Part shown: one piece after another, positions 5,452-39,174 of the stretch
How the letters are laid out: each line of letters opens with the position of its first letter
Position numbering within the stretch: the stretch's first letter is position 1
NCBI GenBank assembly: GCA_018377855.1
Contig: JAGZYM010000005.1
Coordinates: forward strand, 15,567-79,566
Source of the DNA: Collinsella sp.
GTDB lineage: Bacteria > Actinomycetota > Coriobacteriia > Coriobacteriales > Coriobacteriaceae
DNA length: 64,000 nt
Reading direction: 5' to 3'
Position numbers and translations under genes: made by a program
The notes under the pieces: generated by a model
The model's input: only the letters and a program-made list of their open reading frames with translations
Told to the model about the DNA's origin: nothing
Database searches by the model: none

Positions 5452-5529
<78 letters not shown>

Positions 5530-18884: not shown

Positions 18885-18995
18885 TCATTGGGGACAGACT
18901 TAAATGAGTGGTCGTTGGGGACAGCCTTTAAGGACTGTCCCAAGCTGCCGGCAGGAAAGGAACGTCCCCAAGTGCCGGGTTCCCAATGACTAGGT
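18883..18995. repeat. 113-bp imperfect palindromic MITE-like element with 13-bp terminal inverted repeats (CTAGTCATTGGGG...CCCAATGACTAG) and multiple TTGGGGAC/GTCCCCAA motifs
   Basis: Starts at the peptidase stop codon; shares a roughly 45-nt core (CCGGCAG-GAAAGGAACGTCCC-AA-TGCCGG) with 27525-27580 and 34262-34318. Confidence 0.6.
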
Positions 18996-19100: not shown

Positions 19101-20063
19101 CTACTCGTGGATGCGGGTGCCGGAGAGGCCGGCCATGGTCTCGGCGGCCTTGTCCAGAGCGCCGATGATGCAGGTACGGCCCTTGCGGGAACGGGCGAAC
19201 TTGATGGCGGCGCGGACCTTGGGCTCCATGGAACCCTTGCCGAACTGGCCCTCGTCGGCCAGGCGCTCGGCCTCGTCGGCGGTGATGTCCTCGAGCTCCT
19301 CCTGGTTGGGCTTACCAAAGTTGATGGCGACATGCTCAACGGCGGTCAGCAGGAACAGAACGTCAGCGTCGCAGTCCTCGGCCAGCAGCTCGCCGCCCAG
19401 GTCCTTGTCGATGACGGCGGGGACGCCCTTGTAGCAGCCCTTGTTCTCGTAGTCGCGGACGACGGGGATGCCGCCGCCACCGCAGGCGATGACGATGAAC
19501 TCGTTGTCGAGCAGGTTGAGGATGGAGTCAGCCTCGACGATCTTCTTGGGATCGGGGGAAGCGACGACGCGACGCCAGCCGCGGCCGGAATCCTCGACGA
19601 AAACCTTGGAAGGATCCTCGGCCATGAACTCCTTGGCCTGCTCCTCGGTGTAGAAGGGGCCGATCGGCTTGGTCGGGTTCTTGAACGCGGGATCGTCCGG
19701 GTCGCACTCGATCTGGGTGACGACGGTGGCGGCGTGCCAACGCTTATAGCGCTTGTGCATCTCGCGGCCAATGCCCTGCTGCAGGTGATAGCCGATGTAG
19801 CCCTGGGACATGGCGCCGCACTCGGGCAGCGGCATCTCGGGGGTGCCGATGGCGTCGTGGGCAGCGGCGAAAGCGTTCTGAATCATGCCAACCTGCGGGC
19901 CGTTGCCGTGGGTGATGATGATCTCGTTGCCCTGCTCGATCAGGCCGAGGAGAGCGTGAGCGGTGTTGCTCACGGCCTCGATCTGCTCAACGGGGTTGTT
20001 GCCGAGGGCGTTGCCGCCAAGGGCGACGACGATACGATCGGGCTTGCCAAGAGGCTTAGACAT
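19101..20063 (-). CDS. arcC: carbamate kinase
   Basis: MSKPLGKPDRIVVALGGNAL... ; ATG at 20063 with AGGA RBS 9 nt upstream (ORF track 20120). Confidence 0.9.
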   Translation of the reverse strand: MSKPLGKPDRIVVALGGNALGNNPVEQIEAVSNTAHALLGLIEQGNEIIITHGNGPQVGMIQNAFAAAHDAIGTPEMPLPECGAMSQGYIGYHLQQGIGREMHKRYKRWHAATVVTQIECDPDDPAFKNPTKPIGPFYTEEQAKEFMAEDPSKVFVEDSGRGWRRVVASPDPKKIVEADSILNLLDNEFIVIACGGGGIPVVRDYENKGCYKGVPAVIDKDLGGELLAEDCDADVLFLLTAVEHVAINFGKPNQEELEDITADEAERLADEGQFGKGSMEPKVRAAIKFARSRKGRTCIIGALDKAAETMAGLSGTRIHE

Positions 20064-20120
20064 TGCTGGAATCCTTTCTGTAAAAGGCCTACAACCCATT
20101 AATAACCCGCGCCCGTGCAA

Positions 20121-20665
20121 TACGCGAGTTTATTAAGGTTTATATTCTCTTTATCGCTCATTTTATTCATTTTGAAAATAGTTGAACGGTGAACGGTCGC
20201 TTTTGCCCGCTCAGCGTAAAGAAACCCAGCTCAAGCATATCTACGTCATTTACGTGCAACTTTATTTTAATAGAGCAGGGATTAGACCAGATTATGCAAA
20301 CTGTATCTTTGCTAAACATAAAACAGACAGCGCAAAATCTTACTCGCACTATACGAGATTCTATGCACTTATTGGACGAGTATGCAGCCCTGCAATAACA
20401 TGGCGTTTTTCATCCAACTTAAGGAATAGACGAGTGCCTTTGCAGCGCGTCGGCCGGCAGCCGGCGAGCCGTCTCGTCGGTTGCCGCTTCCAGAAAATCA
20501 AAAACTGATATTGCGCGCGCAATTGCTGCATGGTACTTTAGCGAAGAACAGCGCGGGCTGGGGCGACAGAGATCTGCCGTGAAGTTTGGGTTCGGCGACC
20601 CCGCTGCTGTCTTCTCCTTATCCGCCAGCGAACCCCTTGAGCGACGGATTGAGGAGGTCCTTACT
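20121..20665. promoter_or_regulatory. roughly 540-bp AT-rich divergent intergenic region between arcC and the 20666 gene
   Basis: GC drops to about 38%; contains tandem GAACGGT GAACGGT and long A/T runs. Confidence 0.4.
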
Positions 20666-21082
20666 ATGACAAAAATGCTCAAGATCACGCTGAATGGCGA
20701 GACGTTTCTCGCCGACATGCTCTGGGACAAGGCTCCCGAGGCATGCAAGCTATTCGAATCGTCCTGTCCGGTCGAGTCACGTATCTTTTCGGCCAAAATC
20801 TGCGATGCCGAGGTGACGTATCCTGTCTCGGGCCCCATCGCCAATTACGAGCACATCGAGAACCCCGTCTTTCACGAGCCAGCGGGCGCCGTGAGCTGGT
20901 ATGGCGGATGGTCATCAATCTGCATCTTCTTTGACGTCTGTGAGCCTTTTGGCACCTGCAACATGTTCGCCCGCATCTGCGAGACAGACCGTGAACGCTT
21001 TGCCGCTGCCTGCCGCAATGTCTGGGACAACCAGGGCATGTACATTAAAAACGAAATCGTCGAGATCGAGGCGGAGGCCTAA
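20666..21082 (+). CDS. hypothetical Cys-containing protein (possibly cyclophilin-like DUF3830-type fold)
   Basis: Start at MTKMLKITLNG preceded by GAGGAGG; ORF track lists a longer 20579 start. Confidence 0.45.
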   Translation: MTKMLKITLNGETFLADMLWDKAPEACKLFESSCPVESRIFSAKICDAEVTYPVSGPIANYEHIENPVFHEPAGAVSWYGGWSSICIFFDVCEPFGTCNMFARICETDRERFAAACRNVWDNQGMYIKNEIVEIEAEA

Positions 21083-21084
21083 AG

Positions 21085-21609
21085 ATGATGGATATCAACA
21101 CCCTGCTCACACTCGACCTTGCCGAGTACACCGCTGCACTTGAGGCCCTCGCCGACCAAATGATGCTCGAGGAGCCCCGCGACATCGACCTGATGCGCCG
21201 CCGCAAGCTCGACACCGGCCGCGAATTCGCCGTCTGGAACTTCACCGTCGGCTACTGCATGAACGCCACCGACGCCCTCTCCCTCCTGCGAGCCCAGGCC
21301 AACGAAAACGCCAACGATGGCACCGCCGACCTCGCAACGATCAACAACAGCGCCGCACGCCTGTGCGACTGGTTCTCGGGCGCCTTCGACGTCACCGGCA
21401 AAATGGATGACACCACGGCAATCCTCGCCCACAGCCGCGACCTCTACGCCCAGGTAGAGACTCACGAACAGTTTGCAGCCCTCACCCGCGCCACCGAGCG
21501 CTATCTGGTCCAGCTCCAATTTTGGGTTGACCGCCAGATTCCCTGGCCGGCTATTAGCGACTTCGTCCACGGCTACCGCCTACGCACAGAGAGCGGCGAG
21601 ACAAGGTAA
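21085..21609 (+). CDS. hypothetical protein
   Basis: 174-aa ORF 3 nt after the previous stop; codon usage consistent with the host. Confidence 0.5.
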   Translation: MMDINTLLTLDLAEYTAALEALADQMMLEEPRDIDLMRRRKLDTGREFAVWNFTVGYCMNATDALSLLRAQANENANDGTADLATINNSAARLCDWFSGAFDVTGKMDDTTAILAHSRDLYAQVETHEQFAALTRATERYLVQLQFWVDRQIPWPAISDFVHGYRLRTESGETR

Positions 21610-21760
21610 CCAAGCAAGCAGCACCGACAACACCCCACCATCGGGATCCAAAGTAAGAATCAGAGGGCTGGAGACGCACCCAACAGCGTCCCCAGCCCCT
21701 TCGCAAAGTAGAGCACTGTTTCAGTGGCTTTGAGGCCTATTCGAACCTTTGCTATCTCCC

Positions 21761-21840
21761 AATTTTTGTATTTTTACAACAATATTATCTGCAAATTTTT
21801 GTATGATTTTAGGCGATTCTATCTGTCAATTTTTGTCATT
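21761..21840 (+). promoter_or_regulatory. three phased AATTTTTGT(A/C) repeats (21761, 21794, 21828; about 33-bp spacing) upstream of the AAA ATPase gene
   Basis: Direct repeats visible in the sequence; helical phasing suggests a binding-site array or promoter UP elements. Confidence 0.35.
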
Positions 21841-21850
21841 TGGGGGTTTA

Positions 21851-23212
21851 ATGCTACGCCGTAAGGTCACTGATAGGCTTTTGAGCTGGAAGAATAACTC
21901 CAATAAGGCATTACTCGTTACTGGTGCGCGTCAGATTGGCAAGAGCTATGCGATTCGCGCGTTTGGACAAAGCAACTACGCTTCGTATTTTGAGGTCAAT
22001 TTACTACTCGATGTCGAAGCAAGGAATGCACTTGTTGGCGCAAAGAACTCCGTTGACTTTATCAACCGTGTAGCCCTTCTTGCGGATGCGCCGCTTGTTG
22101 AGGGCGATACGCTTGTCTTTGTCGATGAGATTCAGGAGTATCCGCAGATCGTTACACTCATGAAGGCGTTGGTCGAGGATGGGCGCTTTAGCTATGTCTT
22201 CTCGGGGTCTATGCTTGGGACTGAGTTTAAGGGGGTCTCTTCTTTTCCGGTGGGGTATGTAGAGCACATTGTTATGCGCCCGATGGATTTTGAAGAGTTT
22301 TGTTGGGCAAACAGCGTTAGCGAGAATGTGCTTGCAGGCATTCGCAGCTGCCTTGTCGAGAAACATCCTGTCGAAAACTATATTCATGAGGCGATGCTCA
22401 AGAACTATAGAGCTTATATCGTTTGCGGCGGCATGCCGGAGGTCGTTCAGAATTATATTGATTCGGGTTATTCGCTCGTGAGCACACGTGAGCTTCAAAC
22501 TCAGCTGGTCGATCAGTACAAAAGCGATATCTCAAAATATGCATCGACTCGAGCGTTTAACGTTCGGTCGATTTTTGAGCAAATTCCCGTTCAGCTTGAG
22601 GCGGAGTCTCATCGCTTTGTTGTTTCGTCTCTGGGTGAGGGAGCTCGCCTTAAAAAATATGAGCAGGATTTCCTGTGGCTTGTTAACGCAGGTGTTGGAT
22701 TGATGGTCGCCAGGGTGACGGAGCCACGGAGTCCTCTCAAGAGGACGGAGAAAACGACGGCCTTCAAACTATATGAGTCTGATACGGGCATGCTCGCATC
22801 GCGGTACCCCGGCAGCACCGCACGCGCTGTCTATCTTGATATGAAAACTCCCAACCTTGGTGGTCTCTATGAGAACGTGGTCGCGCAGGAACTTGTTGCC
22901 CTCGGGGCGGATGCATGGTACTACCAAACGCGTGAGGTCGGTGAAGTTGACTTTGTGATCGAAGGCGCCCACGGGCACGTTGTCCCAATCGAGGTCAAAT
23001 CGGGCAAGAAAGTTCGAGCGCACGCGGCCCTCGATCGTCTGATGAGTGTGGGCGAGTACAAAATTCCCGAGGCCGTTGTACTAAGCCACGAGAATCTCAG
23101 CAAAGAGGGCAAGGTTCTGTACGTTCCAATCTACATGACGTTTTGTCTCGATGAGTTTATGGAAAAGGATGACCCCAATAACGATTTCTCGTTCGCGCCC
23201 ATATCTCTCTAG
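21851..23212 (+). CDS. AAA-family ATPase with DUF4143 C-terminal domain
   Basis: KALLVTGARQIGKSY Walker A; VFVDEIQ Walker B; start at MLRRK with GGGGG RBS (ORF track 21749); GC lower than its neighbours. Confidence 0.8.
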   Translation: MLRRKVTDRLLSWKNNSNKALLVTGARQIGKSYAIRAFGQSNYASYFEVNLLLDVEARNALVGAKNSVDFINRVALLADAPLVEGDTLVFVDEIQEYPQIVTLMKALVEDGRFSYVFSGSMLGTEFKGVSSFPVGYVEHIVMRPMDFEEFCWANSVSENVLAGIRSCLVEKHPVENYIHEAMLKNYRAYIVCGGMPEVVQNYIDSGYSLVSTRELQTQLVDQYKSDISKYASTRAFNVRSIFEQIPVQLEAESHRFVVSSLGEGARLKKYEQDFLWLVNAGVGLMVARVTEPRSPLKRTEKTTAFKLYESDTGMLASRYPGSTARAVYLDMKTPNLGGLYENVVAQELVALGADAWYYQTREVGEVDFVIEGAHGHVVPIEVKSGKKVRAHAALDRLMSVGEYKIPEAVVLSHENLSKEGKVLYVPIYMTFCLDEFMEKDDPNNDFSFAPISL

Positions 23213-23582: not shown

Positions 23583-27122
<3,540 letters not shown>

Positions 27123-27468
27123 ATACCCCTCTCCTCTCATATAGGTATACAGGCCCCGGCGATCGCCGGGATGTTGGCGTGATGGGATTTACGCTGTTGC
27201 TTCCAATCATCTGGCAGGCGGACTCAGCAGCAGGTACATGGCGTGGAGAGAAGGCATGCCGAGGCGAGGAGGGCTGCACGCGCTCCACAAGCCCAGCTAC
27301 CCGTCTTGCACATGACCGAGCGCCGCAAAGGCCGCATGCCGGATGCTCCCGGGCACGCCCCGGCGATGGGAAGCGCCCGCAACGGAAATCCGCATGCGGG
27401 TTTATTGTACCCCGCCGTTAAGTGTAATTTCGACAAATATAGGCGGGCGGTAAAGGTTTACCTCGGGT

Positions 27469-27995
27469 GACCGCCAAAGGCCAGAATGGTCCCTCCATCC
27501 CCGGACGACTGGCTCTGACGCGCCAAGGAGTGTCCCCAAGTACCGGCAGGAAAGGAACGTCCCTAACTGCCGGCTAGAGGGCGCCGAGCAGGATGGCGTA
27601 GGTGGTGGATTCGCCGAGTTTGAGCTCGTCGCCGGGGTTGAGCTGGGCGGAGCGGCCGGGCTCTACTTGAATACACACACTCGTGGCCCCGTTTACCACC
27701 ACGGTGCCGTTAGTGGACGACAGGTCCTCGACAAACCATGCGCCAGACTCGTCGCACCAGATATGGGCATGGCGGGCCGAGACGTCGTCGGTGATGCCGC
27801 CCTCCCCCGTTGCCAGCGCGCCGATCTCAACGCCTTCCTCACTCGGCTGAATCCAGCGCGGGACGCTCACCACGTAGCCGTTTTGCACGCACAGCAGTCC
27901 CAGCGGATGCGCCGGCGCGACCTCGTGCTCGCCCGCGACCGAAGATGTGCTCAGCGAGCGCGGCGTCGACGTGTCGCCGCCACGGGTCGCATGAG
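27469..27995. repeat. left copy of a roughly 530-bp direct repeat (about 85% identical to 34205-34748) covering the FHA-domain coding region and its 3' flank
   Basis: Nucleotide alignment by eye; includes the shared 45-nt motif. Confidence 0.75.
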
Positions 27996-28047
27996 CGCGG
28001 CGGCTCGCCCGACTTGGAACTAAGGCGGGCGTGAGAGCAAACGGCAT
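27574..28047 (-). CDS. FHA-domain protein, truncated paralogue (FHA domain only) of the 34310-35248 gene
   Basis: C-terminal 135 aa nearly identical to the paralogue (VSARHAHIWCD...VEDLSSTNGTVVNG); unique 18-aa N-terminus. Confidence 0.6.
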   Translation of the reverse strand: MPFALTPALVPSRASRRAHATRGGDTSTPRSLSTSSVAGEHEVAPAHPLGLLCVQNGYVVSVPRWIQPSEEGVEIGALATGEGGITDDVSARHAHIWCDESGAWFVEDLSSTNGTVVVNGATSVCIQVEPGRSAQLNPGDELKLGESTTYAILLGAL

Positions 28048-28533
28048 AGGGAACGAATCTTGCGGATGTACTCCTCGACGTCAGGCAGGTAAGCCCCACG
28101 AAGTCACCGGGGAGGCCCAAGCGGCCCGGCACCACTTCCAGATTCTGACCAGGGCGAGTCGTTCGCCGGTGGCTGAAGGCTCGCTCCCACCCAAAAGGGG
28201 AGATTCGCGTTGTTCCCCAATCGCTCTCGCATCTTTCATTTTGCTCGAGGTGGGCTATAAAAACTTTCCTGGTGAAAGGCGGCGATTGGTTTCCTTTCTT
28301 TCTAGAGGAGCGCGCCTGTAATCTGTTTTCATCCTAAATCAAGTTAAGATCGGACCTTCCAGAGGCAAGTCGACTCAAACTGCGAGGCTCCATGTTGGAA
28401 TAAAGAGCGCTGTCGAAGTGCCAACAACACAAAGCTTGCCAGTCTCAAATAGAACCTTTTGGGAGTCCGATTGGGCCGCACACCGAATCCCCGCTGGTGG
28501 TTTTTTATAGCTGCGCAACAATAAACAAGGTTA

Positions 28534-29922
28534 GTGCCAGTCCAGCATGAAATTGAGGAACGTATGCATTTTTTCTCAGTAAGTGATCGTCGTTACTGCT
28601 TCGATGAGGTCACTCGCAATTGCTTTCAGGTTGACCAAGCATCAGAAGATGCGCTTCGCATATTTGAAGCATCGGGAAGAACGGTCAACTCGAAGTTGCT
28701 AACAAAGTCACTTGCTGCGAAAGGCTACGACCAAACGACCATAGCAGAACTTGAAGACGACATTGATGAGTATCAACGATTGTCTGAGCGGACTTTCTTA
28801 ACAAAAGACACGCCTCGAAAACTTAGATCCATCGAACTCCACGTTTCACATGCATGCAACCTTGGTTGTAGTTACTGTTTTGCCGGTAAAGGAGATTATG
28901 GAACGTCTCCTCTGCTGATGACAGACGAGATAGCCTTCAAGGCGGTCGACTACCTCGTCGCAAGTTCATCGGAAAACGAAACGCTTGCGATCGTCTTTTT
29001 TGGTGGGGAACCCATGATTAACGAGCCGCTGATATGGAAAACGGTCGACTATTCAAAAAGAATATACCCCAATAGAAACTTTACCTATTCTATTACGACC
29101 AACGGAACGCTTTTGAATGACACTGCTGTGAATTCTTTCAAGGAGCACGGGTTTTCTGTTCTGATTAGTCTCGATGGTACAGGATGCAAGCACGATGCAT
29201 CGCGCCCGTACAAGACGGGAGGCGGCTCTTTCTCCGATATCGACAAAAACGTTCGTCGTTTTTCCGAGTCGTTCCCCTTCGGCGCAAGAGCGACCTTAAC
29301 AAATAATAACTGTAACCTTGTTGAAGACTATCTTCAGTTTAAAGAGATGGGCTTCAGAAGGATTTACTTCTCGCCCGTGAGCTCATTCGATGAGAATATC
29401 AAACTCGACGAACACTCATTAAACAAAATCAGGGCGGGCCTAATAGATTTGGCGGATCAATATCTCAAACAGATTGATCAAGGGGAAAAGCCCTTGTTTA
29501 GAACATTGAAAACTGCAGTTGATTTGATTATGAGTAACAGGATCGCCTTTGTCGGATGCGGGGCTGGCAGGCGTTTTATTTCCGTGACTCCCGAAGGGGA
29601 CGTATACCCCTGTCACAGGTTTGTCGGGATGATGCGATTCAAAATGGGCAACATCGTCACCGGAATTGACGAAACTAGGTATATTGAAAACTGGAGTCAG
29701 GGTGTCGAAAAAAGAATTGACTGTACGGACTGTTGGGCTCGGTCTTTCTGTGGTGGGGGCTGTAGCTGGGAGGCTGCAGACGAGCACGGCTACTTGCCCA
29801 AGAGTCTACACCCTGCATCATGTGAATATAGAAAAATGTGCTACGAGATGGCTTTTGACCTTATTTCCCGCCACTCATCTTCGCAGGAGAAAAATCAACG
29901 AGAAGCTACTGTATCGGAATAA
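28534..29922 (+). CDS. radical SAM/SPASM-domain peptide-modifying maturase with roughly 100-aa N-terminal RRE-like extension
   Basis: CNLGCSYC (CxxxCxxC) at residues 108-115; C-terminal SPASM cysteines CGAGRR...C...CTDCWARSFCGGGC...CEYRKMC; about 43% GC; alternative ATG at 28564. Confidence 0.85.
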   Translation: MPVQHEIEERMHFFSVSDRRYCFDEVTRNCFQVDQASEDALRIFEASGRTVNSKLLTKSLAAKGYDQTTIAELEDDIDEYQRLSERTFLTKDTPRKLRSIELHVSHACNLGCSYCFAGKGDYGTSPLLMTDEIAFKAVDYLVASSSENETLAIVFFGGEPMINEPLIWKTVDYSKRIYPNRNFTYSITTNGTLLNDTAVNSFKEHGFSVLISLDGTGCKHDASRPYKTGGGSFSDIDKNVRRFSESFPFGARATLTNNNCNLVEDYLQFKEMGFRRIYFSPVSSFDENIKLDEHSLNKIRAGLIDLADQYLKQIDQGEKPLFRTLKTAVDLIMSNRIAFVGCGAGRRFISVTPEGDVYPCHRFVGMMRFKMGNIVTGIDETRYIENWSQGVEKRIDCTDCWARSFCGGGCSWEAADEHGYLPKSLHPASCEYRKMCYEMAFDLISRHSSSQEKNQREATVSE

Positions 29923-30091
29923 GCGGTTCAGCGCATTGCTGTCACCATTGTGGAGGTGTTCGTTCTTCTGATTACCGTCTGCGAAGCTTATTGCTACATT
30001 CGCCGAAACCATTCTAGAAATATGGTGAACTAGACATCTTGGTTTGTTATACACAATATTGAGGTTTTTCTGCACTCAAAGGGAGGTAGTC

Positions 30092-30295
30092 GTGAAGCAT
30101 ATTCATCCGATTAATCCAGGAAGTGGCGACGAGGCAGGCGTGAAGCCGATGTCTTTTGACTGCCTCTTGGGCATTACTGACATCTGTACTGTTTATGATA
30201 AAGCAGATGGCTGTGGTGCATACGATTACTGCGACTATGACATGGATGGCGGCAGCATCTGCGTTGTAGATCACTGTGGCATTGATCAAACGTAG
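30092..30295 (+). CDS. RiPP precursor peptide 1 (67 aa; MKHIHP leader; core with 6 Cys and repeated C-x2-4-D spacing)
   Basis: GTG start 5 nt after AAGGGAGG; MKHIHPINPGSGDEAGVKPMSFDCLLGITDICTVYDKADGCGAYDYCDYDMDGGSICVVDHCGIDQT. Confidence 0.65.
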   Translation: MKHIHPINPGSGDEAGVKPMSFDCLLGITDICTVYDKADGCGAYDYCDYDMDGGSICVVDHCGIDQT

Positions 30296-30325
30296 TCTCT
30301 AATTGGATTAAGGTGAGGAGCTGTT

Positions 30326-30505
30326 ATGAAGCATATCCATCCTGTTGGTTCAAATGAACATCCTCCCGTTGAGCCTTGTTGTCTTGGAGTTGATATATGC
30401 AATTATTACGACATCGCCGAGTGCCCTGTTGCGGATTGGTGCTATGTCGATAAAGAATCAAGCTGTGTTTTGCCAGCAGATTGGTGCGATCCAGTTGACG
30501 AGTAG
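30326..30505 (+). CDS. RiPP precursor peptide 2 (59 aa; same leader family; 7 Cys), absent from the ORF track
   Basis: My own translation: ATG at 30326 after AGGTGAGGAG gives MKHIHPVGSNEHPPVEPCCLGVDICNYYDIAECPVADWCYVDKESSCVLPADWCDPVDE, stop TAG at 30503-30505. Confidence 0.65.
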   Translation: MKHIHPVGSNEHPPVEPCCLGVDICNYYDIAECPVADWCYVDKESSCVLPADWCDPVDE

Positions 30506-30583
30506 TTTTGTGGCTAGGAACTATTTGGTCCAATTCAGAATAAGATGGGAACAAATACCAAAATCTCGTGTCTGGGAGGAGTT

Positions 30584-30691
30584 ATGCCATTATTGCAAGG
30601 TCTCGTTGGATTAGCCTTTATACTTGCGTTATATCTGGCACCTTTTTTAATTCTATTCTTCATTATCCGACTCTTTCTTCGGAGAAAATAG
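30584..30691 (+). CDS. small hydrophobic peptide (35 aa, single TM, RRK C-terminus); candidate immunity or membrane partner
   Basis: ATG after GGGAGGAG; MPLLQGLVGLAFILALYLAPFLILFFIIRLFLRRK (my own translation, not in the ORF track). Confidence 0.3.
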   Translation: MPLLQGLVGLAFILALYLAPFLILFFIIRLFLRRK

Positions 30692-31391
30692 GAGTGTCAC
30701 GCAAACATTAGCGTAGCTTTCTTCCAATATGAGCCGAGCATTGGCAAGTGGAATAAGAAGCCCGACCGTTCGCCACATGAAAGTGATCGGACGGGCTTCT
30801 CTATTTAACCCGGGCCGCCACCCATAGCGGCTTTCCAAGCGTATTCTCAGTGCAAAGCAATCGTCAGTTTAATCCTATGCGCTGATACCGCATTTCATTT
30901 GTTCGGCTCGAATTCTACGGCCTGGCAACCCTCGCACTCTCCGGCAAATGGATTGAACGCGAAGGCAGAGATGATGTGTGCGTGGACATCGAGGCTGCTG
31001 TAGGCAACATACTGGGACATGGACCCCCGCTGCGCGTGGTATGCGGCCCGGCATATTCATTGCCGTCCAACCCCGTGTAGTTGCAGCAAAGGGTGGAACC
31101 TCAATGCTCAGCTCATGTTGTCCGTGGGACACGAGAATCGTAAGTACACTTTGGTGCGATTCTCACGCTGATACTGAGCCACCTGGAATAAGATACGTCG
31201 CGACAACACTTCGCTTCACCTCTGTCTCGACAAGATGACGTAGACTAAAGTTTCCTTTAGTAAGAGAACGAGAACTATATCTGAAAGCGTTGCGATGGCG
31301 TGAAGGCACCGAGTCCGAACCGCCTGAATGCTACGTGCATCTGCATCGCCTTTTTGTTATCTCTGCCAGTTGGGTAGCACTACACTTGTCA

Positions 31392-33044
31392 TCATTTACC
31401 CTGGTACATGCTGCCTAAATCCACTACCCCTTCTACCGCGCCGACCATCTCGTCATCGTGAGAGACAACGATGATCAGCTGGCTTTGCTTGTTGCGCTTA
31501 ACATAGGCCGCAAGCTCGGCGCGGCTTACAGCGTCTAACCCAGTCGTGGGCTCGTCGAGTACCAAAACTGACGACTTGCGTGAAATCGCCGACCATAAGT
31601 ACACTCGGCGCAGCTCACCGCCCGAAAGCGCGGAGCAACGTTTCCCGAGCAACTCCTTCACGCTGTTTTCCAACGAAAGTAGGCCATCTACACCCCGGTG
31701 ATAGGAAGAAAAGGGCGTGTCGAAATACTCTAACAGCTCTTTCACCGTTTCGTCCGGCGCGAAGCACGACTGTGGGCAGCACGATATCTCTCTCGCACGT
31801 ATGTAATCCAAGTCGCATTCTTCGATTGGCACGCCGTTGTATTTTACTTTGCCTTTCGATGAGTATAGCCCGAGCATCAAGTAAAGAAGTGACGTCTTGC
31901 CTCTTCCGTTTTCCCCAACTATGCAATATGTACCAGGACCGGAAAACTTGAAAGAAAACCCGCCGAGGACCTCTCGGACAGATCCGTCTGGAAGGGCAAC
32001 CGAGAATTCCAAATCAGATACCGAAATGTCATTTATTTCATCGAGTTTAGCTAAATCGGTCCGATTCCACCCCGATCTCTCCTTTTCTCTCGTCGCGATA
32101 GCCGTCCTATCCCATGATGCTTTGGCATCTTGATAGGATTTGAACAATGACATCATACTTTTCAAAGTCTTAAAGAGAACCGCGAAGTATGTACCGATGA
32201 TAGTGTACTCGCCTATTGACATAGTTCCGTTAATGATTCGTACTCCGGAAACAACAAGTATCACCGCTTGAAACAACGCTGCGAAAAGACCATCGAGCGA
32301 TGTCAGAGAATATGATAGCTTTCCGGAGCGCAAAACTTTGGGAAAATAGCTCTTAAACCCAGCGTCGAGCGCTTGTTCGCTCTTGCCGTACGAAGATGTC
32401 AGTTGAATGTTGAGAATCTGATTAAGCTGCGATGCAATTGCGGCGTAAAAGGCGCTGTCCGCCTCTTTCTTCTCATACGTGACCCTATACAAAAGATTCC
32501 TCAACCCAGTAATTACACAGAAATACACGATGAGGAGAATGATGGAAAACACCGCGAGAGTTGAATCAATTGACCATATGATAAGCAATACGATGGGAAT
32601 GGCTACAATGGACAGCGGCGCACTGATAAAATTCGCCAAAACGAAGGATGAGACCACGCTGGAGTCGGAAATAATCCGTTGCGTTGTATAGGCTGGATCG
32701 ATGGTCCGACTCACCAAGTAATCGTCTCTTTCAAAACGCAAGACGGCCTCCCTGAGAAGATCAAAGGAAAGTCTCGTGGTTATGCGAATGGAAAGTGTTC
32801 CTGCAAAATAAGTAAAGAGGGTGGAGAAAACTCCTATTGACGCAACCAGGAGCGCGAAGAGTACGGCGTCTCTTTCGCTGCGGTTACCGAGAAGAAAATC
32901 TAAGAATTTCCCGTTCACGTATGGCATGGCATAGGAGAGAGCGGTTCCAATCACCGTGATAGCAATGAAGACGAAAGCCCCTTTTGCTCTGATGAACCTC
33001 GAGAGAACGCATCGAATCAAGGAAGGCCCCAATCTACCCGCCAC
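31392..33044 (-). CDS. ABC exporter, fused TMD-NBD half-transporter without N-terminal peptidase domain
   Basis: Walker A GENGRGKTS, signature LSGGELRR, Walker B VLVLDEPTTGLD; about 6 TM helices; low GC. Confidence 0.8.
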   Translation of the reverse strand: MAGRLGPSLIRCVLSRFIRAKGAFVFIAITVIGTALSYAMPYVNGKFLDFLLGNRSERDAVLFALLVASIGVFSTLFTYFAGTLSIRITTRLSFDLLREAVLRFERDDYLVSRTIDPAYTTQRIISDSSVVSSFVLANFISAPLSIVAIPIVLLIIWSIDSTLAVFSIILLIVYFCVITGLRNLLYRVTYEKKEADSAFYAAIASQLNQILNIQLTSSYGKSEQALDAGFKSYFPKVLRSGKLSYSLTSLDGLFAALFQAVILVVSGVRIINGTMSIGEYTIIGTYFAVLFKTLKSMMSLFKSYQDAKASWDRTAIATREKERSGWNRTDLAKLDEINDISVSDLEFSVALPDGSVREVLGGFSFKFSGPGTYCIVGENGRGKTSLLYLMLGLYSSKGKVKYNGVPIEECDLDYIRAREISCCPQSCFAPDETVKELLEYFDTPFSSYHRGVDGLLSLENSVKELLGKRCSALSGGELRRVYLWSAISRKSSVLVLDEPTTGLDAVSRAELAAYVKRNKQSQLIIVVSHDDEMVGAVEGVVDLGSMYQGK

Positions 33045-33359
33045 AAAACATCAATCACTGATACCTTACACCTCAACACAACAGGAGCGAAGATTTGCCA
33101 ATGAGACTGCTTTAAGATTGCCTTGGGCCAATACGATCTCAAGCTCTTCCTACAAGAGAGTCGGAATCGGACATCTCCTCCGACGAACCTGGCAATCGGG
33201 CGGTTGAAATATCTTTTTCAACCGCCCGATTGCCACAATAGATTTGAGCATCCGCCCACAAACGTCCGCGTTTTATACCCATCAAATCCTTTGCCTTTTG
33301 TCGTCTAGACTAGAAAAATCGCTCGAAATAACGCAACCGGCCTGCTCGCTTGAAGAAAC

Positions 33360-33967
33360 CTAAGCCCGTAACGTAGATGTGCAAACTTCCGAAACGCCTT
33401 GCGCGGCATAGTGCGTATAAACTTCGTCAACCGCCTCAGAAATATCTGAGTATCGCGCCGGGTCAAAAGCATACGATGTCGCAGCTATACCCTGCACCCA
33501 TTCGGAACGCGGATTAATTGAATAGCCACACAGCATCATCATACATGCATCTAGACCTGATTTCCCAAGTATCCGACGTATTGATGAGAGCATCGCGGGT
33601 CGCCCCTGCACCATCGTCGTCACCCCTATTAGCAGTATTTACCGTTTTTCTCTAAATGCGTATCGCCACCCTTAAGAATACGAAGTGTTTTATCCAGACC
33701 CGATTGTCCTCCATCTCAAACGAAGGGATAAGGAATCTCATCCGGAATCGGCAGTAACGGAGGATTCACAACGACAAGCGAAAAACATGAGTCATCTCTC
33801 AGAGGGGAGTAAAGGCTCCCCTCAAGCACCCTAGTTTCGTCATCCAAAGAGTTGATGGCAGTGTTTTTCTTACAAAGGTCGACAACAAAAGGGTTGATTT
33901 CTACAGATGTTACATCCATGCCACAGTTGGTAAGTATCAGGCCCTGTATTCTGGGGCCAGAACACAA
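33360..33967 (-). pseudogene. remnants of a class I SAM-dependent methyltransferase split across two frames
   Basis: 33716-33967 fragment has motif I (LDLCSGPRIQG) and VVNPP; 33360-33623 fragment is in another frame; no intact ORF. Confidence 0.4.
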
Positions 33968-34204
33968 ATCGAGAGCCTTCCGTGCGCTCTGCGGTGTAAG
34001 GCGCCAATCTCAGCAAATCTGTCCCACAATACTGCGCTGAAGAACAAGACGGAACCCCTGAGCCAAACTCCCCTATACCTTATTAAGGCTAAGACAGGCA
34101 AGTTCACGCACCCGGCATATTCCAGAATAACATCCTATTGTTTTAGATGCTCTACAAGCATGAACAGCCGCGAATCGGAAAGATCTTCTAGTTTCGCCCC
34201 GACT

Positions 34205-34748
34205 GACCGCCAAGGGCCAAAATGGCCCCTCCATCCCCGGGCGACTGGCTCTGGCGCGCCGAGGAGTGTCCCCAAGTGCCGGCAGAAAAGGAACGTCCCT
34301 AACTGCCGGCTAGAGGGCACCGAAGAGAATGGCGTAGGTAGTGGATTCGCCGAGCTTGAGCTCGTCGCCGGGATTGAGTTGGGCGGAACGGCCGGGCTCG
34401 ACCTGAATGCAGACGCGCGTGGCCCCGTTTACCACCACGGTTCCGTTGGTGGACGACAAGTCCTCGACGTGCCAGATATTTTGAGCATCGCACCAGATAT
34501 GGGCATGGCGGGCCGAGACATCGTCGCCGACGTCGGTAATATCGCCCTCACCAGTGGCCAGCGCGCCAATCTCAACACCCTGCTCACTCGGCTGAATCCA
34601 GCGCGGGGCGCTCACGACAAAACTGTTTTGTACGCGCAGCAAGCCCAAGGGGTGCGCCGGGGCGGGTTCGCGTTCGCCCGCGGTCATCGACATGCCAAGC
34701 GAACGCGGCGTGGATGTGCCTCCGCCACAGGTCGCGTGCGCGTAGTCG
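34205..34748. repeat. right copy of the roughly 530-bp direct repeat (see 27469-27995)
   Basis: Nucleotide alignment by eye. Confidence 0.75.
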
Positions 34749-35248
34749 ATGGCATAGTTCACCGAGGACCGCACATCCGCCGAACAACCGACGGCGACAA
34801 ACAGCACCAGCACGGCCTCGGCGCGCTCGGCGGGCATGAGTTCCGCCGCCTGGGACAGGCGATCGAGCGCGTTGCGATAGAGATTCGTGTCCTGGTGGCA
34901 CTCTTCGAGCGCGCGTACCATCGGTTCACCTGCAGGACCGCACACCATATTGATCACAGCCGTGGAGTCCATGGGATTGCGCTGGCGCAGGGCCAGTTGC
35001 GACATAATACGCGCAGCCGAGGTACCGTATTCGGCAAAGTAGCGCTGCTGAAGCGTGCCGACCGGCGCGCGAACGATAAAGCGGGAAACCCAAGAGCGAT
35101 CGGCGGCTCGGCTCTGCGGGCTGCGGCCGTCGGCGAGCGGACGGGACGAAAGCACCAGGCCGCACAGCTCGATATGGCTCAGATGCGCCGCGCGCTTAAA
35201 GATGTCAAACATGGCCCCGCATGGGGTGAGCTCAACTTGAGATGCCAT
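34310..35248 (-). CDS. FHA-domain protein (full-length; N-terminal domain of unknown function plus C-terminal FHA)
   Basis: C-terminal FHA motifs; immediately downstream of a Ser/Thr kinase gene. Confidence 0.8.
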   Translation of the reverse strand: MASQVELTPCGAMFDIFKRAAHLSHIELCGLVLSSRPLADGRSPQSRAADRSWVSRFIVRAPVGTLQQRYFAEYGTSAARIMSQLALRQRNPMDSTAVINMVCGPAGEPMVRALEECHQDTNLYRNALDRLSQAAELMPAERAEAVLVLFVAVGCSADVRSSVNYAIDYAHATCGGGTSTPRSLGMSMTAGEREPAPAHPLGLLRVQNSFVVSAPRWIQPSEQGVEIGALATGEGDITDVGDDVSARHAHIWCDAQNIWHVEDLSSTNGTVVVNGATRVCIQVEPGRSAQLNPGDELKLGESTTYAILFGAL

Positions 35249-35251
35249 GAC

Positions 35252-37096
35252 CTAGGCCTCCTTGGTCGTAGAAATAGAATCGGACGATACTTCGACAGGT
35301 ACGCCAAAAGTACGGGCAGCTGCGGCTCCACCGGCAAGCGGAGTCGCCATCTGGGCTTTTGTGCGTCGCGGTGCCGAAGCGGGAAGTTCAAAGGCAAAGC
35401 CCATCGCAAGCAAAAACCACGTAAGCGTATAGGTTGCAACCAGAGCGGCAACAAGGCCGCCCATCACGGCGCGTTGGGAAAATACGCTACATGCAGCCAC
35501 AACCAGCACCGGAACCTCGCAGGCAGAAAGCGCAAGCACACCCTGCAGGAACCCCGAGCGCCGATCGCGCGCAAGCGCCCCCGCGGCAACGCCGGCTATG
35601 CCTGGCAGCGCCAACGCCAGTGCGGCAATAATACCCGGTAGCGACCCAGACCACACGAGCGATCCCAAAGTCGCCGTCACGCGAGTGCCCGACGCCAGCA
35701 GCGCGGCCGAAACCACGACCACAGCCCAAACCACGCCACAGACGACCGTCGCGCCGACCATCAGCGTGCGACGAACCGCGCGGCCGGACGCATCCATGGG
35801 GCACGGCGTGAGCGGCTCGCCGCGGAGCGAACGACCGACATTTTGCGCATAGTGGTCACAAAACGCCGAGAGCGCCGCCTCGACCGCCGCCGGCTCGGGA
35901 CGATCTTTTTGATGGCTGGACAGACAGGCCATCACCACGTCGAACAGCTGGGCATCGACAAACGCCAGCGCATCGCGTAGCTCTTCGGAATCCGGCTCAA
36001 GCCCCAGCTGCTGGGCCTGCTCGGCCGCGGCGAGCGCCACATCGGGCTCACGGCGAAGCAGCTGAGTCAAATCACAACCGGGCGCATGGACACCGATGGG
36101 ATAGTCGGGTCGCGTGTCCATCTTGAGACGATAGGGGCTCGCGATGTCGCGCGTCTTTTTGCGCGAACCCGAGGTGCCCGAAGTGCCCGGCGCGGCTTCG
36201 TATGGCGCGACGCCGGCAATGAGCTCGTAAACCGTGCTTGCCGCGGCATAGACGTCAATCGCCGGCGACATACGCAAAGCGCGCAGGTCGGGAATATCGT
36301 CGGTGAGCATCTCGGGCGGGGCATAGGCAACCGTCGCGCGACGCAGCGTGGCATAACGCTCCGTAAACGACGCCTTGCCGCCGGTACCGGCCACGGCCGA
36401 CGCAGGCTCGAGCGCCAGCGACGAGCCAAAGTCGATCAGGCACAGGTCAAAGGTGCCCTCGGCAAGCTGCCGGTCAAGCGGCAGGCGCGCCGTGCGCACC
36501 ATAATATTAGCGGACGAGATATCGCGATGGACAAAGCCCTCGCCCACCAGGCTCATACGGCAGAGCAGATCGAACAGGTCGCGACCCAGACGCGCCGCCA
36601 CAAGCGGCGACAGGCGTCCGGCATCGCCCACGGCAAGTCGCGAACGCAAGCGGGCAAGCGTCTCGCCCTCGACCCATTCCATGACAATTGCAGGCACACC
36701 GTCGACCTCGCCCCAGCCATAGAGGCGGGGAAAGCCCTTAAGGCCCGAAAGGGCGCGATGGCATTCGTATTCCTCGCGAAACGCCGCCTTGAACTTGGCG
36801 ACCAGCGCCTCGTGAGCGGCATCGTCGTCAAACTCATCGCGCGTCGGCAAGATGAGCTGCTTGAGTGCCACGGCCTCGCCTTGGGCGTTGACGGCACGCG
36901 TCACGCGGCCGATACCGCCACGGCGCATGGTGGCATCGTCGGCAAACAGCATCGTAAAACGACGCAGATAGGCAGGCAGTTCGTCCTGACCGAGCGCAAT
37001 GGCCGGCTCAAACCCGTCGACACGCGCCAGGCGCAGGCCGACCATGGGATCGCGACCGAGCGATTGTGGTGTGGTGGATGCAAGATCGGTCATCAT
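35252..37096 (-). CDS. Ser/Thr protein kinase with C-terminal polytopic membrane region (about 5 TM helices)
   Basis: Kinase subdomains ...AVALKQL..., HRDISSANIMV, DFG; C-terminal 180 aa hydrophobic. Confidence 0.85.
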   Translation of the reverse strand: MMTDLASTTPQSLGRDPMVGLRLARVDGFEPAIALGQDELPAYLRRFTMLFADDATMRRGGIGRVTRAVNAQGEAVALKQLILPTRDEFDDDAAHEALVAKFKAAFREEYECHRALSGLKGFPRLYGWGEVDGVPAIVMEWVEGETLARLRSRLAVGDAGRLSPLVAARLGRDLFDLLCRMSLVGEGFVHRDISSANIMVRTARLPLDRQLAEGTFDLCLIDFGSSLALEPASAVAGTGGKASFTERYATLRRATVAYAPPEMLTDDIPDLRALRMSPAIDVYAAASTVYELIAGVAPYEAAPGTSGTSGSRKKTRDIASPYRLKMDTRPDYPIGVHAPGCDLTQLLRREPDVALAAAEQAQQLGLEPDSEELRDALAFVDAQLFDVVMACLSSHQKDRPEPAAVEAALSAFCDHYAQNVGRSLRGEPLTPCPMDASGRAVRRTLMVGATVVCGVVWAVVVVSAALLASGTRVTATLGSLVWSGSLPGIIAALALALPGIAGVAAGALARDRRSGFLQGVLALSACEVPVLVVAACSVFSQRAVMGGLVAALVATYTLTWFLLAMGFAFELPASAPRRTKAQMATPLAGGAAAARTFGVPVEVSSDSISTTKEA

Positions 37097-37998
37097 AGGG
37101 CAAGCGCCGCCACGTTATTGTTGAAGTTACCGAGTGCGACGTCATCATCGCCGTAATGGCCGACCCATTGACATAGGTTGGTATAACAGCCCCACAGATT
37201 GGCATACTGCTGATACCACTTTGACCGGGGCGAGAATGTCTGACGACCGAACTCGGCTCGAATGACAAACATCTCCCCGACCAGGCTGTCGCACGGCCTG
37301 GGATCTCCCGTAGAGTTATAGGTCGAGACCACGTCATTGGCACGAGAAACATAACCGTCGAGCATGTTGTACTTGGTCACAAGCCAACTGTGAATGCTCT
37401 CTTCCTCAGCAGCGGAAAGGCCACCGGAGTTTGCATCGTTGTCAGTGTTGCCGCCCGTCGAGCCGCCGTTTCCAGACCCTCCGGTAGAGGAACCCGACCC
37501 AGAGCCGCCGCCCGAACTCGATGAATCCGAGCCGGAGCCAGAAGTATCCGAGCTACCGGGCTTTCCGGACTGCTGGGCGTCCTGCTCCTTCTGCTGCTCG
37601 ACCTTATTCACCGTTGCCGCCACGCTATTGTTGGACAACCGATCGATGATCTTGGTGTTGGTGAGCACGATGGTTTTGCCATTGGCAAGCGTGACTTCGT
37701 TGTCCGGGGCCTCGGCGCCGTCCGCATCGTCGGTGCCAAACACAATATGCCCGACCACACTTGCCCAAGCATATCCAGTCGTGGTGCCCAGATCACTTTT
37801 GACCTCATGCCCCACGCGCGGTTCGCGTGCGGCATGCGCCTGCATCATGGACGGCACGGTCATGCCATAGGCAGAAACGCCAGCTATGACCAGCACCAGC
37901 GAGCACGATAGCAGTGCGTACGCCCGCGGCGCCAAGCCCAGTCGGCGTCGTATGCGCACCGCGGCGCCGCGCTTTGTCTGAGTGCCACCGGGCCGCAT
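37093..37998 (-). CDS. membrane-anchored/secreted hypothetical protein with long Ser/Gly-rich linker
   Basis: Start at MRPGGTQ with GGAGGAG RBS (ORF track 38091); signal-anchor LLSCSLVLVIAGVSA; SGSGSDSSSSGGGSGSGSS linker; ATGA overlap with the kinase. Confidence 0.5.
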   Translation of the reverse strand: MRPGGTQTKRGAAVRIRRRLGLAPRAYALLSCSLVLVIAGVSAYGMTVPSMMQAHAAREPRVGHEVKSDLGTTTGYAWASVVGHIVFGTDDADGAEAPDNEVTLANGKTIVLTNTKIIDRLSNNSVAATVNKVEQQKEQDAQQSGKPGSSDTSGSGSDSSSSGGGSGSGSSTGGSGNGGSTGGNTDNDANSGGLSAAEEESIHSWLVTKYNMLDGYVSRANDVVSTYNSTGDPRPCDSLVGEMFVIRAEFGRQTFSPRSKWYQQYANLWGCYTNLCQWVGHYGDDDVALGNFNNNVAALAL

Positions 37999-38243
37999 GC
38001 GTTCTCCTCCAACAAAAACACGCCGCTCAGAAGCGGCGCATTCATTCGAATCCATATTTGAGTGTATCAGCGAACCAAAAAGGTTGCGCAACGAATGGAC
38101 AAATTAAGGATGCGAGCGGAAGCATCCATGCGATAAGCGGACACGAAGCATCTTTGTTGCACAACAAACTCACAGTCGCACGGGGAAATTATGACTACCC
38201 CGTGCGTCGCGAGGAAAACATACGGCAGGAGCAGGCTCGCCAC

Positions 38244-38840
38244 CTAAATCGCGCGGCGGGCCTCGATGGCGCGGCCAAGCGTAAGCTCGTCGGCATACTC
38301 CAAGTCGCCGCCCACGGGAAGGCCGCTTGCCAGACGCGACACCTCGACGCCCAACGGCTTGATGGTACGGGCCAGATAGCTCGCCGTGGTCTCGCCCTCG
38401 ATGTTGGGGTTGGTGGCGATGATGACCTCGTGGATGTCCTCGTGGCCCAAGCGTGCCAGCAGCTCTCGAATGTGCAGCTGCTCGGGGCCAATCTTGTCCA
38501 TGGGACTGATCACGCCGCCCAATACGTGGTAGAGGCCGTGGTAGCTGCCCGTGCGCTCAATCGCCTGGACATCGCGCGGCTCGCCCACCACGCAAATGCG
38601 AGTGGTATCGCGCATCGGGTCCTGGCAGATGGAGCACTCGTCGGCCGTGGCGTAGTTAAAGCAGCGGCTGCAAAAGTGGACCTCCTGCTTGACCTCCAGG
38701 ATGGCCTCGGCCAGGCGGCGCGCCTCCTCGGCGTCGGCCTCCAACAGGTAATAGGCGATGCGCTGGGCCGACTTGGGACCAATGCCCGGCAGACGGCCCA
38801 GCTCATCGAGCAGTTTTTGCAGACTGTGATTTGCACTCAT
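38244..38840 (-). CDS. recR: recombination protein RecR
   Basis: HhH motif [13 protein letters not shown]; zinc finger [16 protein letters not shown]; Toprim domain. Confidence 0.95.
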
Positions 38841-38853
38841 ATATATGCGTGTC

Positions 38854-39174
38854 TTAGAACGGCATGCCCGGGATGTTGAGGCCGCCGGTGATGGCGCCCA
38901 TCTGCTTGTTGGCGAGCTCGTTAACGCCGCGGACGGCCTCGTTGACGGCAGCCATGATCATATCCTGCAGCATATCGACGTCCTCGGGATCGAGGGCATC
39001 GGGATCGATGGTGAGGTTGACGAGCTCCATCTCGCCGTTAACGGTCACCTTGACCATGCCGCCGCCGGCAGAGGCGTCGACGGTCTGGGACTTGAGGTTC
39101 TCCTGCGCGGCGGCAAGCTGCTCCTGCATCTTGCGAGCCTGCTTCATCATCTGCTGCATGTTCATACCGGCCAT
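38854..39174 (-). CDS. ybaB: YbaB/EbfC nucleoid-associated protein
   Basis: [15 protein letters not shown]...[10 protein letters not shown]...; 106 aa. Confidence 0.95.

Follow-up and report, generated by a model that had tools for sequence, protein, structure and literature searches.

How does the 3' end of a gene come to stand twice in a chromosome, once as part of the complete gene and once on its own, with a block of foreign-looking DNA between the two? This question is raised by a 64,000-nt stretch of Collinsella sp. (GenBank assembly GCA_018377855.1, contig JAGZYM010000005.1, positions 15,567 to 79,566; the whole stretch is called the window in the following), in which a low-GC cassette of the type that specifies ribosomally synthesized and post-translationally modified peptides (RiPPs) lies between two direct repeats derived from a gene for an FHA-domain protein. 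We think it probable that the two repeats are the 3' ends of two alleles of one gene, brought together by 3'-end displacement, and that the resulting arrangement was then spread by homologous recombination.

A repeat search and a pairwise alignment with MAFFT placed the left copy (c2) at about 27466-28000 and the right copy (c1) at about 34202-34745, in good agreement with an initial annotation of the sequence, which had reported direct repeats at about 27469-27995 and 34205-34748. The start-to-start spacing is 6736-6745 nt, corresponding to two long direct-repeat blocks (spacings of 6736 and 6745 nt) and a single 9-nt indel. The copies can be aligned along their whole length and are not unrelated: we counted 89 substitutions in ~531 aligned nt, which gives ~83% identity (~82% with the indel, 81.7% by BLAST) and is slightly lower than the ~85% reported before, and the longest exact runs common to both copies are 32 nt. 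Each copy comprises the FHA-domain coding part and 108 nt past the stop codon, as had been described, and the 3' flanks are ~93% identical over these 108 nt (92.9% over 113 nt in the alignment). Both copies are host-like in GC content (~63%), which drops to 43-50% between ~28200 and ~34200, and this low-GC block between the repeats carries genes for a radical-SAM/SPASM maturase, two Cys-rich precursors and an ABC exporter. The open reading frame (ORF) of the left copy (27574-28047, minus strand, 157 aa) matches Pfam FHA with E = 2.4e-10, and its first ~17 residues come from unrelated sequence belonging to a junction segment, so that the novel N-terminus seen in the initial annotation is confirmed. 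The right ORF (34310-35248, minus strand, 312 aa) is the full FHA gene (Pfam FHA) and stands directly downstream of genes for a Ser/Thr kinase and a 332-aa protein; Pfam matches and ORF layout both agree with the operon proposed earlier. For the 332-aa gene no Pfam match was found, and we keep the earlier label 'secreted-protein gene' for it. The features of the locus are as follows, where L-numbers denote the related loci and P-numbers the database proteins of our comparison.

23583..27140, minus strand: gene for pyruvate:ferredoxin oxidoreductase (PFOR; Pfam POR_N/POR/PFOR_II/TPP), the conserved right-hand anchor
27141..27465: gapL, the intergenic segment from PFOR to the FHA flank, starting at an invariant point (...GTCA followed by CCCGAGGTAAACC)
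27466..28000, minus strand: c2, the left repeat copy, 3' part of an 'A-type' FHA allele attributed to another Collinsella lineage (108 nt of flank plus codon ~168 to stop)
27574..28047, minus strand: FHA-only ORF of 157 aa, linker plus complete FHA domain (Pfam FHA), with ATG and first ~17 residues from junL
27997..28250: junL, a GC-rich junction segment (~250 nt) with an illegitimate join to FHA codon ~168
28534..29922, plus strand: radical-SAM/SPASM peptide maturase, PapB/SCIFF-like (Pfam Radical_SAM, Fer4_12, SPASM)
30092..30295, plus strand: precursor peptide A, Cys-rich, GTG start behind AAAGGGAGG (from translation, Shine-Dalgarno context and a homologue beside the radical-SAM gene in L085)
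30326..30505, plus strand: precursor peptide B, 59 aa, Cys-rich, MKHIHP leader (from translation and homologues in L085 and L088)
31392..33044, minus strand: ABC exporter, fused permease/ATPase without peptidase domain (Pfam ABC_membrane and ABC_tran)
33045..34201: isR, a cassette-linked extra segment with HemK-like methyltransferase pseudogene fragments (33360-33967), meeting the c1 flank at ...GGCGGTCA followed by GTCGGGGCGAAAC
34202..34745, minus strand: c1, the right repeat copy, resident 'V-type' allele: 3' part and flank of the full-length FHA gene, at 98-99% identity with the single copy of empty sites
34310..35248, minus strand: full-length FHA protein gene, 312 aa, last gene of the operon (Shine-Dalgarno AAGGAGG before the ATG)
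35252..37096, minus strand: Ser/Thr protein kinase (Pfam Pkinase)
37093..38091, minus strand: upstream 332-aa gene, forming with the kinase gene the left-hand homology arm (35252..38091)

The origin of the left copy became apparent from L081, an empty site of a divergent lineage with a single full-length FHA gene. We observed that c2 is 99.8% identical to this gene over 531/531 nt, whereas the same locus reaches only 80% identity to the window in the secreted-protein gene, 84% in the kinase gene and 88% in the 5' part of the FHA gene. The match at 99.8% starts exactly at the 5' end of c2 and runs on into gapL and PFOR; around position 27997 the identity is 84.8% over 4.9 kb on the one side and 98.2% over 949 nt on the other. 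Along window positions 27050-39083 as a whole, L081 diverges by ~15% on the kinase side and by ~2% from c2 via gapL into PFOR. Because c2 is nearly identical to L081 while the neighbouring genes of L081 are only 80-88% identical to those of the window, c2 has to be regarded as a displaced allele fragment and not as a paralogue, and by the same comparison the divergence between c1 and c2 equals the divergence between lineages of the neighbouring genes. Two loci from other samples (L083 and L084) show the same A-type continuity as L081. Full-length FHA proteins with the c2-type C-terminal ~140 residues exist as well (P0084, which is encoded by L081, P0078 and P0080), next to others with a c1/c2 mosaic C-terminus (P0074-P0076). 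The copy c1 is 98-99% identical to the single copy of the empty sites and has a V-type flank, as in the empty site L017; the flank of c2 is A-type. Judged by these alignments, c2 is the displaced 3' end of an FHA allele from a Collinsella lineage ~15% diverged.

This result changes how the locus is to be described. The left copy had been called a truncated FHA paralogue, but it matches the orthologue of another lineage, and a duplicative recombination of the locus' own sequence at insertion, which had been suggested too, does not agree with a foreign-lineage allele. The second suggestion of the initial annotation, an element that captured part of its target, comes close to the truth since the truncated copy travels with the island; there is, however, no integrase, transposase, attachment (att) core or target-site duplication that would identify such an element. 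An assembly chimera is an unlikely explanation of L081: it is a k141 contig whose join coincides exactly with the boundary of the repeat, c1 and c2 have no more than 32 identical bases in common, and the loci L083 and L084 agree with it.

For an overview of the locus within the genus, one genome per GTDB species was scanned with the full-length FHA protein as query, which gave 80 Collinsella loci, and the window segments were mapped onto them. The arrangement was as in the window in 39 loci and included a variant cassette in two; 31 were clean empty sites, six had IS110 or other DNA after the FHA gene, and two ended with the contig. A clean empty site consists of kinase gene, one FHA gene, a flank of ~57-139 nt and PFOR, which directly follows the FHA gene. 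Cultured isolates are found in both classes (L002 and L008 occupied; L007, L022 and L070 empty), and the arrangement occurs in metagenome-assembled genomes (MAGs) too. With clean empty sites in 31 of the 80 related genomes the island is real and polymorphic, and its interior is foreign and strain-variable, as had been claimed. Two FHA copies without a cassette were found in 0 of 160 loci examined; likewise, no genome carries two full-length FHA genes at the locus, be it with the island or, as independent genes in a relative, without it. The segment gapL, which contains a promoter-like site for PFOR, is present in empty and occupied loci alike, and every flank allele converges on its first base. 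PFOR is 97-98% identical in all related loci, a uniformity that reflects either unusually strong constraint or recent exchange.

The two junctions of the island differ in character. The 5' boundary of c2 lies inside FHA codon ~168, between ...GAGCCGCCG and CGCTCATGCGACC..., and is abrupt, with a microhomology of at most 1 nt. The adjoining segment junL is 99-100% identical in all occupied loci; it has no homologue elsewhere in the window and is not kept in the cassette copies of other hosts. In a metagenome scan 88 stretches contained the end of junL, and a continuation by anything but c2 gave 0 hits against these 88 positive-control hits. This invariance speaks for a single origin, and on sequence grounds it points to a junction between junL and c2 that arose once. 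On the other side, the cassette meets the last base of the c1 flank (...GGCGGTCA followed by GTCGGGG...), and this junction of isR and c1 is invariant in the 39 standard occupied genome loci. The join point is the same at which each flank allele of an empty site meets the PFOR-proximal segment (...GTCA followed by CCCGAGG...). As a separate observation, four loci (L001, L016, L019 and L037) share an 85-nt deletion across the junction of junL and c2 (around 17237-17245), where the BLAST matches overlap by 9 nt.

How could such an arrangement have been formed? Orphan gene ends produced by displacement of C-terminal (3') ends have been described for rhs, cdiA and type VI secretion system (T6SS) effector-immunity loci, where homology-facilitated illegitimate recombination was proposed as the mechanism (Kirchberger 2017, PMC5361080, citing Jackson 2009, Poole 2011, de Vries & Wackernagel 2002). 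The Collinsella locus has the corresponding marks: a 5'-truncated downstream copy, a different allele that is full-length elsewhere (L081/P0084), and an illegitimate 5' boundary of the orphan with homology on its other side. In the simplest history, a foreign low-GC RiPP cassette would have been joined to the locus in one rare event that combined a homologous anchor at one end with an illegitimate join at the opposite end, and this event would have stranded the old FHA 3' end of the recipient downstream. Its product would be the unit that is invariant today, composed of the V-type FHA 3' end with its flank, the cassette, and junL with the A-type FHA 5' part. This unit would then have spread among Collinsella lineages by ordinary homologous recombination, with FHA, kinase and PFOR sequences as arms and without an integrase.

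The traces expected from such a spread are visible in the data. In the 21 occupied loci that are complete, pairwise identity has a median of 99.6-99.9% for the cassette and of 100% for junL, compared to 97.8% for the kinase gene, 98.2% for PFOR and 93.8% for gapL; with so much less diversity than the core genes beside it, the cassette is younger than the backbones that carry it. In metagenome loci picked by junL only, the block of V-type FHA gene and cassette is found in different backbones. Among these loci we observed that L159 combines an A-like secreted-protein gene (79.7%) with a chimeric kinase gene (90.9%), its left-hand breakpoint lying in the kinase, and that L113 switches between the secreted-protein gene (82%) and the kinase gene (97.5%). 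In L084, which has an A-type backbone, the first copy changes from A-type to V-type at the 32-nt run and is adjoined by the V-type flank and then the cassette; the first copies of L111 and L101 are likewise chimeric. The breakpoints on the kinase side are homologous crossovers whose positions differ between genomes, and the 3' portion of c1 with its flank is always linked to the cassette. At the other end, c2 is always A-type at its start; its 3' part and flank vary, with flank alleles A, B and C that occur in empty-site genomes as well. Such mosaics would be expected from double crossovers with FHA, kinase and PFOR sequences as arms. We note separately that the metagenome contigs L082, L083 and L084, which carry mosaic FHA alleles, end 25-200 nt after the FHA stop. 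Because the repeat and the variable gap behind it fragment assemblies, FHA alleles that come from MAGs call for caution at this locus.

Several points weigh against displacement followed by recombinational spread. The founding event itself was not observed, and neither of the precursor states it calls for was found, i.e. a cassette beside a V-type FHA gene without c2 or an A-type FHA gene interrupted by the cassette. A homologous anchor at ~85% identity would be inefficient, and for transfer in Collinsella transformation, conjugation and transduction are all merely candidate routes. The A-type empty site rests on a single 5.3-kb metagenome contig (L081), although the protein cluster of P0084 has 53 members and two further contigs agree with it. 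The 80 genome loci were selected by identity to c1, so that V-type alleles are favoured among the empty sites sampled. Finally, either lineage may have been the recipient, and either junction may represent the primary insertion, with the other as the later illegitimate join. The event may also have been the mirror image of the one proposed, with the anchor on the PFOR side and the illegitimate join at the c1 flank.

An alternative that retains the FHA repeats as functional ends is a cycle of the Campbell type, in which recombination between c1 and c2 excises a circle of cassette plus hybrid repeat, and a single crossover into any Collinsella FHA gene regenerates the repeats after transfer. A circle with the 3' fragment of a gene would by one crossover indeed lead to the layout of the window, in which an insert separates the full gene from a truncated copy. 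Moreover, seven contigs from seven samples (L096, L102, L120, L122, L151, L153 and L160) have a circle or tandem topology and read radical-SAM gene, junL, a hybrid from c2 5' to c1 3', c1 flank, isR and ABC exporter gene, with switches at shared runs of 32 nt and 25 nt. All seven, however, are of low coverage (~1-3x), and the observed hybrid circle cannot yield in one step the c2 of the window, which is wholly A-type, together with a wholly V-type c1. In genomes of the L084 type the first copy has an exact stretch of ~290 nt in common with c2, and its switch lies in the same 32-nt run. Mis-paired assembly paths therefore explain the seven contigs at least as well, and we regard these as probably reflecting assembly ambiguity. 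In addition, no reciprocal deletion products were identified, and the cassette is without replication or transfer functions. As V-type empty sites keep their V-type flank, they look ancestral and not like products of excision. We therefore consider such a cycle unlikely. For the same reasons the repeats can be called a natural excision substrate, as in the initial annotation, only in so far as excision between them is mechanistically plausible; no proof of it was found, the empty sites look ancestral, and the contigs are better explained otherwise.

A bolder combination would take the FHA repeats as the ends of an integrase-free mobile unit, released as a circle and re-inserted by a single crossover into any Collinsella FHA gene, with the seven contigs as a first sighting of its circular or tandem form, and would separately have the FHA-only protein expressed and acting on the neighbouring Ser/Thr kinase as a decoy, by which the cassette would be linked to that signalling. 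We hold this to be quite improbable.

In an AlphaFold model of the full FHA protein (mean predicted local distance difference test score, pLDDT, 79) a helical domain at residues 9-173 is followed by a disordered linker (175-196) and the FHA sandwich (201-309), and according to these limits c2 encodes the linker and the complete FHA domain. No Pfam or NCBIfam match was obtained for the N-terminal ~170 residues; residues 9-173 are predicted with confidence (pLDDT 82-94) to form an all-helical domain, and ~50% is its minimum identity in C. tanakaei and C. bouchesdurhonensis. The full gene has the Shine-Dalgarno sequence given above, but none was seen before the ATG of the FHA-only ORF, for which no promoter-like site was found either. 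In the loci with the 85-nt deletion this ATG is removed, suggesting that the ORF is dispensable. The short protein is widespread and annotated as an FHA protein in many genomes. We considered the intact frame of c2 as a sign of function and dropped it: c2 is ~100% identical to a functional allele, has had too little time to decay, and owes its variation to import from full-length alleles. Since c2 is essentially identical to a functional allele, the open frame says nothing about selection, and neither would the ratio of non-synonymous to synonymous substitutions. The FHA-only ORF is thus most likely a by-product or relic with a complete domain too young to have decayed.

Islands that are inserted by an integrase into the 3' end of a gene and bring a replacement gene end have a similar layout, with a duplicate of the 3' end of their target, and the site has been hit repeatedly, IS110 standing 22 nt after the FHA stop in other genomes. 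The integrase would in that case have been lost since. Pfam and NCBIfam scans of ORFs of at least 80 aa found no integrase, excisionase, transposase or remnant of them within 28000-34200, i.e. in 6.2 kb. The repeat ends are not conserved cores, and there is no short identical att core; the identity of ~83% is spread over 531 nt with no exact run longer than 32 nt. An inverted-repeat search returned only chance-level pairs of 26-28 nt at 70-73% as candidates for terminal inverted repeats, no target-site duplication was found at the island junctions, and no tRNA lies at the island, the only one (5452-5529) being 22 kb away. Within the gene the boundary was formed by an illegitimate join. It is the copy still attached to the 5' half that agrees with the allele of empty sites, the displaced one being of foreign lineage, and the cassette occurs elsewhere without such repeats. 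An integrase-mediated origin is accordingly very improbable.

Even less can be said for an in situ tandem duplication of the 3' half of the FHA gene, followed by divergence of the paralogues and insertion of the cassette between them. It would agree with direct repeats of host-like GC content that bracket the island, and with a short FHA protein that is widespread and annotated as a gene. An origin of c2 as a paralogue in situ was nevertheless rejected on the comparison with L081, in which c2 is 99.8% identical to the orthologue of another lineage and c2 differs from c1 about as much as the neighbouring genes differ between lineages; in addition, a pair of FHA copies without a cassette is not seen in any of the 160 loci, and the 5' boundary of c2 meets cassette-linked sequence instead of a duplication junction. 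We regard this origin as highly improbable. Hardly credible, finally, is an assembly artefact in which copies from two co-assembled strains were joined into a chimeric arrangement, since, although metagenome contigs often break just past the FHA gene (L082-L084) and hybrid contigs exist, the same arrangement with identical junctions is found on long isolate scaffolds and in dozens of independent assemblies.

The gap between FHA gene and PFOR deserves attention of its own. The shared flank of c1 and c2 starts with a stable nested hairpin and has no match in Rfam. Its motif had been noted before as a feature of the two repeats, and it does exist there; it is not specific for the locus, though, because a third copy was found at 18948-18979, where 0 are expected by chance. 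This copy belongs to a structured element of ~105 nt at 18880-18990 between convergent genes for a C39-like peptidase and an amino-acid kinase, with a fold z of -4.6 and terminal inverted repeats GTCATTGGG...CCCAATGAC. From its sequence the flank motif looks like part of a dispersed structured intergenic repeat, and the element at 18880-18990 like a repetitive extragenic palindrome (REP) or a miniature inverted-repeat transposable element (MITE). Between the FHA stop and GTCA, the point at which CCCGAGG begins, the loci have ~57-139 nt with at least three unrelated alleles A, B and C (L010:10940-11080, L005:10940-11000, window 27466-27573 and 34202-34309). Allele B forms an almost perfect palindrome (stem of ~23 bp), and the same alleles are found after the single copy of empty sites and after c2 of occupied sites. 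An IS110-family element with a transposase of 375 aa (Pfam DEDD_Tnp_IS110, Transposase_20) is inserted inside the flank hairpin at the position mentioned above in L048:10964-12608, L009, L034 and L061 and probably in L083 and L133/L149, including cassette-bearing loci. These insertions within the hairpin mark the FHA-PFOR gap as a hypervariable hotspot. In L009 more than 10 kb of other DNA follow the IS110 element; we considered this DNA, with genes for a LuxR-family regulator, MatE and an amidohydrolase, as a second island and rejected it, as it looks like a rearrangement to another chromosomal region. The two variant cassettes (L015:5119-5435 and L050:10940-11260) lack the A-type flank on the c1 side and the first 895 nt of isR, and half of the B-type flank palindrome is joined at isR position 896 instead. 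No window landmark was found at this variant junction, and c2 of L050 has a V-type 3' half.

The cassette itself is of foreign character and occurs outside Collinsella. Its core (maturase, precursors, exporter) was found as a low-GC block of ~4 kb in other high-GC hosts at unrelated sites, namely in L086-L088 between an ECF transporter gene and murB, and in L085 next to copies of IS21 and IS110. Long flanking repeats were looked for around the cassette in these hosts and none were found, which makes the FHA repeat a property of the Collinsella locus and not of the cassette. In L085:4214-7358 the cassette directly adjoins the IS110 and IS21 (IstA/IstB) copies, and these neighbours hint at how a cassette without mobility genes moves between sites. 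The maturase scored 272 bits with rSAM_PapB, 266 with SCIFF and 189 with CcpM of NCBIfam, all below the equivalog cut-offs of 340, 425 and 500 bits, respectively. Its family is small, with relatives at 73%, 67%, 56%, 52% and 48% identity followed by others at ~33%. The two precursors A and B are distinct Cys-rich and acidic peptides with a common leader MKHIHP, and both types are kept beside the maturase in distant hosts (L085:11864-12396; L088:11720-11908). A small maturase family below all named cut-offs suggests that maturase and precursors may represent an undescribed ranthipeptide-like class. The ABC exporter matches bacteriocin-type ABC families below their cut-offs and is conserved together with the radical-SAM gene in other hosts, and no toxin or immunity families were found in the cassette by Pfam and NCBIfam scans. 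Within isR, two adjoining short ORFs at 33360-33967 are fragments of a HemK/PrmC-like methyltransferase that keep the region of the NPPY-type motif; an 83-aa fragment gave matches to Pfam MTS and to the HemK type of NCBIfam. This remnant is absent from the cassette copies of other hosts, in which isR as a segment is not kept either. Elsewhere in the window, positions 20001-23000 form a second low-GC stretch (51-55% compared to ~60% around it) with a gene for an AAA_14/DUF4143 ATPase (21749-23212) and a DUF3830 gene, and this stretch may be another acquired segment.

Compared to known systems, the locus can be placed with the recombination scars of 3'-end displacement, a general type already known; what is unusual is the setting, a signalling gene with a RiPP cargo. 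With rhs, cdi and T6SS loci it shares a full-length gene that has an orphan 3' fragment from another allele downstream of it, the orphan still being homologous over a stretch to the full gene. Homology at one end goes with an illegitimate join at the other, and the finished array moves by homologous recombination without an integrase. In contrast to these loci, the Collinsella gene encodes an FHA signalling protein and no toxin domain or immunity gene is exchanged; the alleles appear functionally equivalent, the gain is an unrelated RiPP cassette in between, and there is one orphan instead of an array. The layout of full gene, insert and truncated direct repeat, reversible by recombination between the repeats, resembles a Campbell single crossover of a suicide plasmid with an internal or 3' gene fragment as well, but no circular replicon was found, and a c1 that is all V-type beside a c2 that is all A-type misfits the only candidate circle. 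With integrase islands and prophages that target gene 3' ends it shares the position beside a 3' end, the partial duplicate and the empty sites in relatives; it differs from them in having neither a recombinase nor a short att core, and in a repeat of 531 nt at ~83% whose duplicate comes from another lineage. The cassette resembles ranthipeptide and SCIFF clusters (PapB and ScfB maturases), in which a radical-SAM/SPASM gene stands beside short Cys-rich acidic precursors and an exporter, while its maturase scores below the PapB, SCIFF and CcpM equivalogs and it has two different precursors with the leader MKHIHP.

What the locus offers is a natural example of a biosynthetic cassette without mobility genes that enters a prevalent genus of the human gut and sweeps through it by recombination alone. 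The stranded gene end is a datable scar that names the lineages involved. With this case 3'-end displacement, for which polymorphic toxin loci are the best-known examples, is extended to an ordinary signalling gene. In many Collinsella annotations the 157-aa 'FHA domain-containing protein' is probably a relic, and the repeat breaks or scrambles metagenome assemblies at the locus, which results in chimeric FHA alleles and pseudo-circular contigs. The FHA-PFOR gap, as a hotspot of recombination and insertion, may be of use in strain typing or as a neutral knock-in site.

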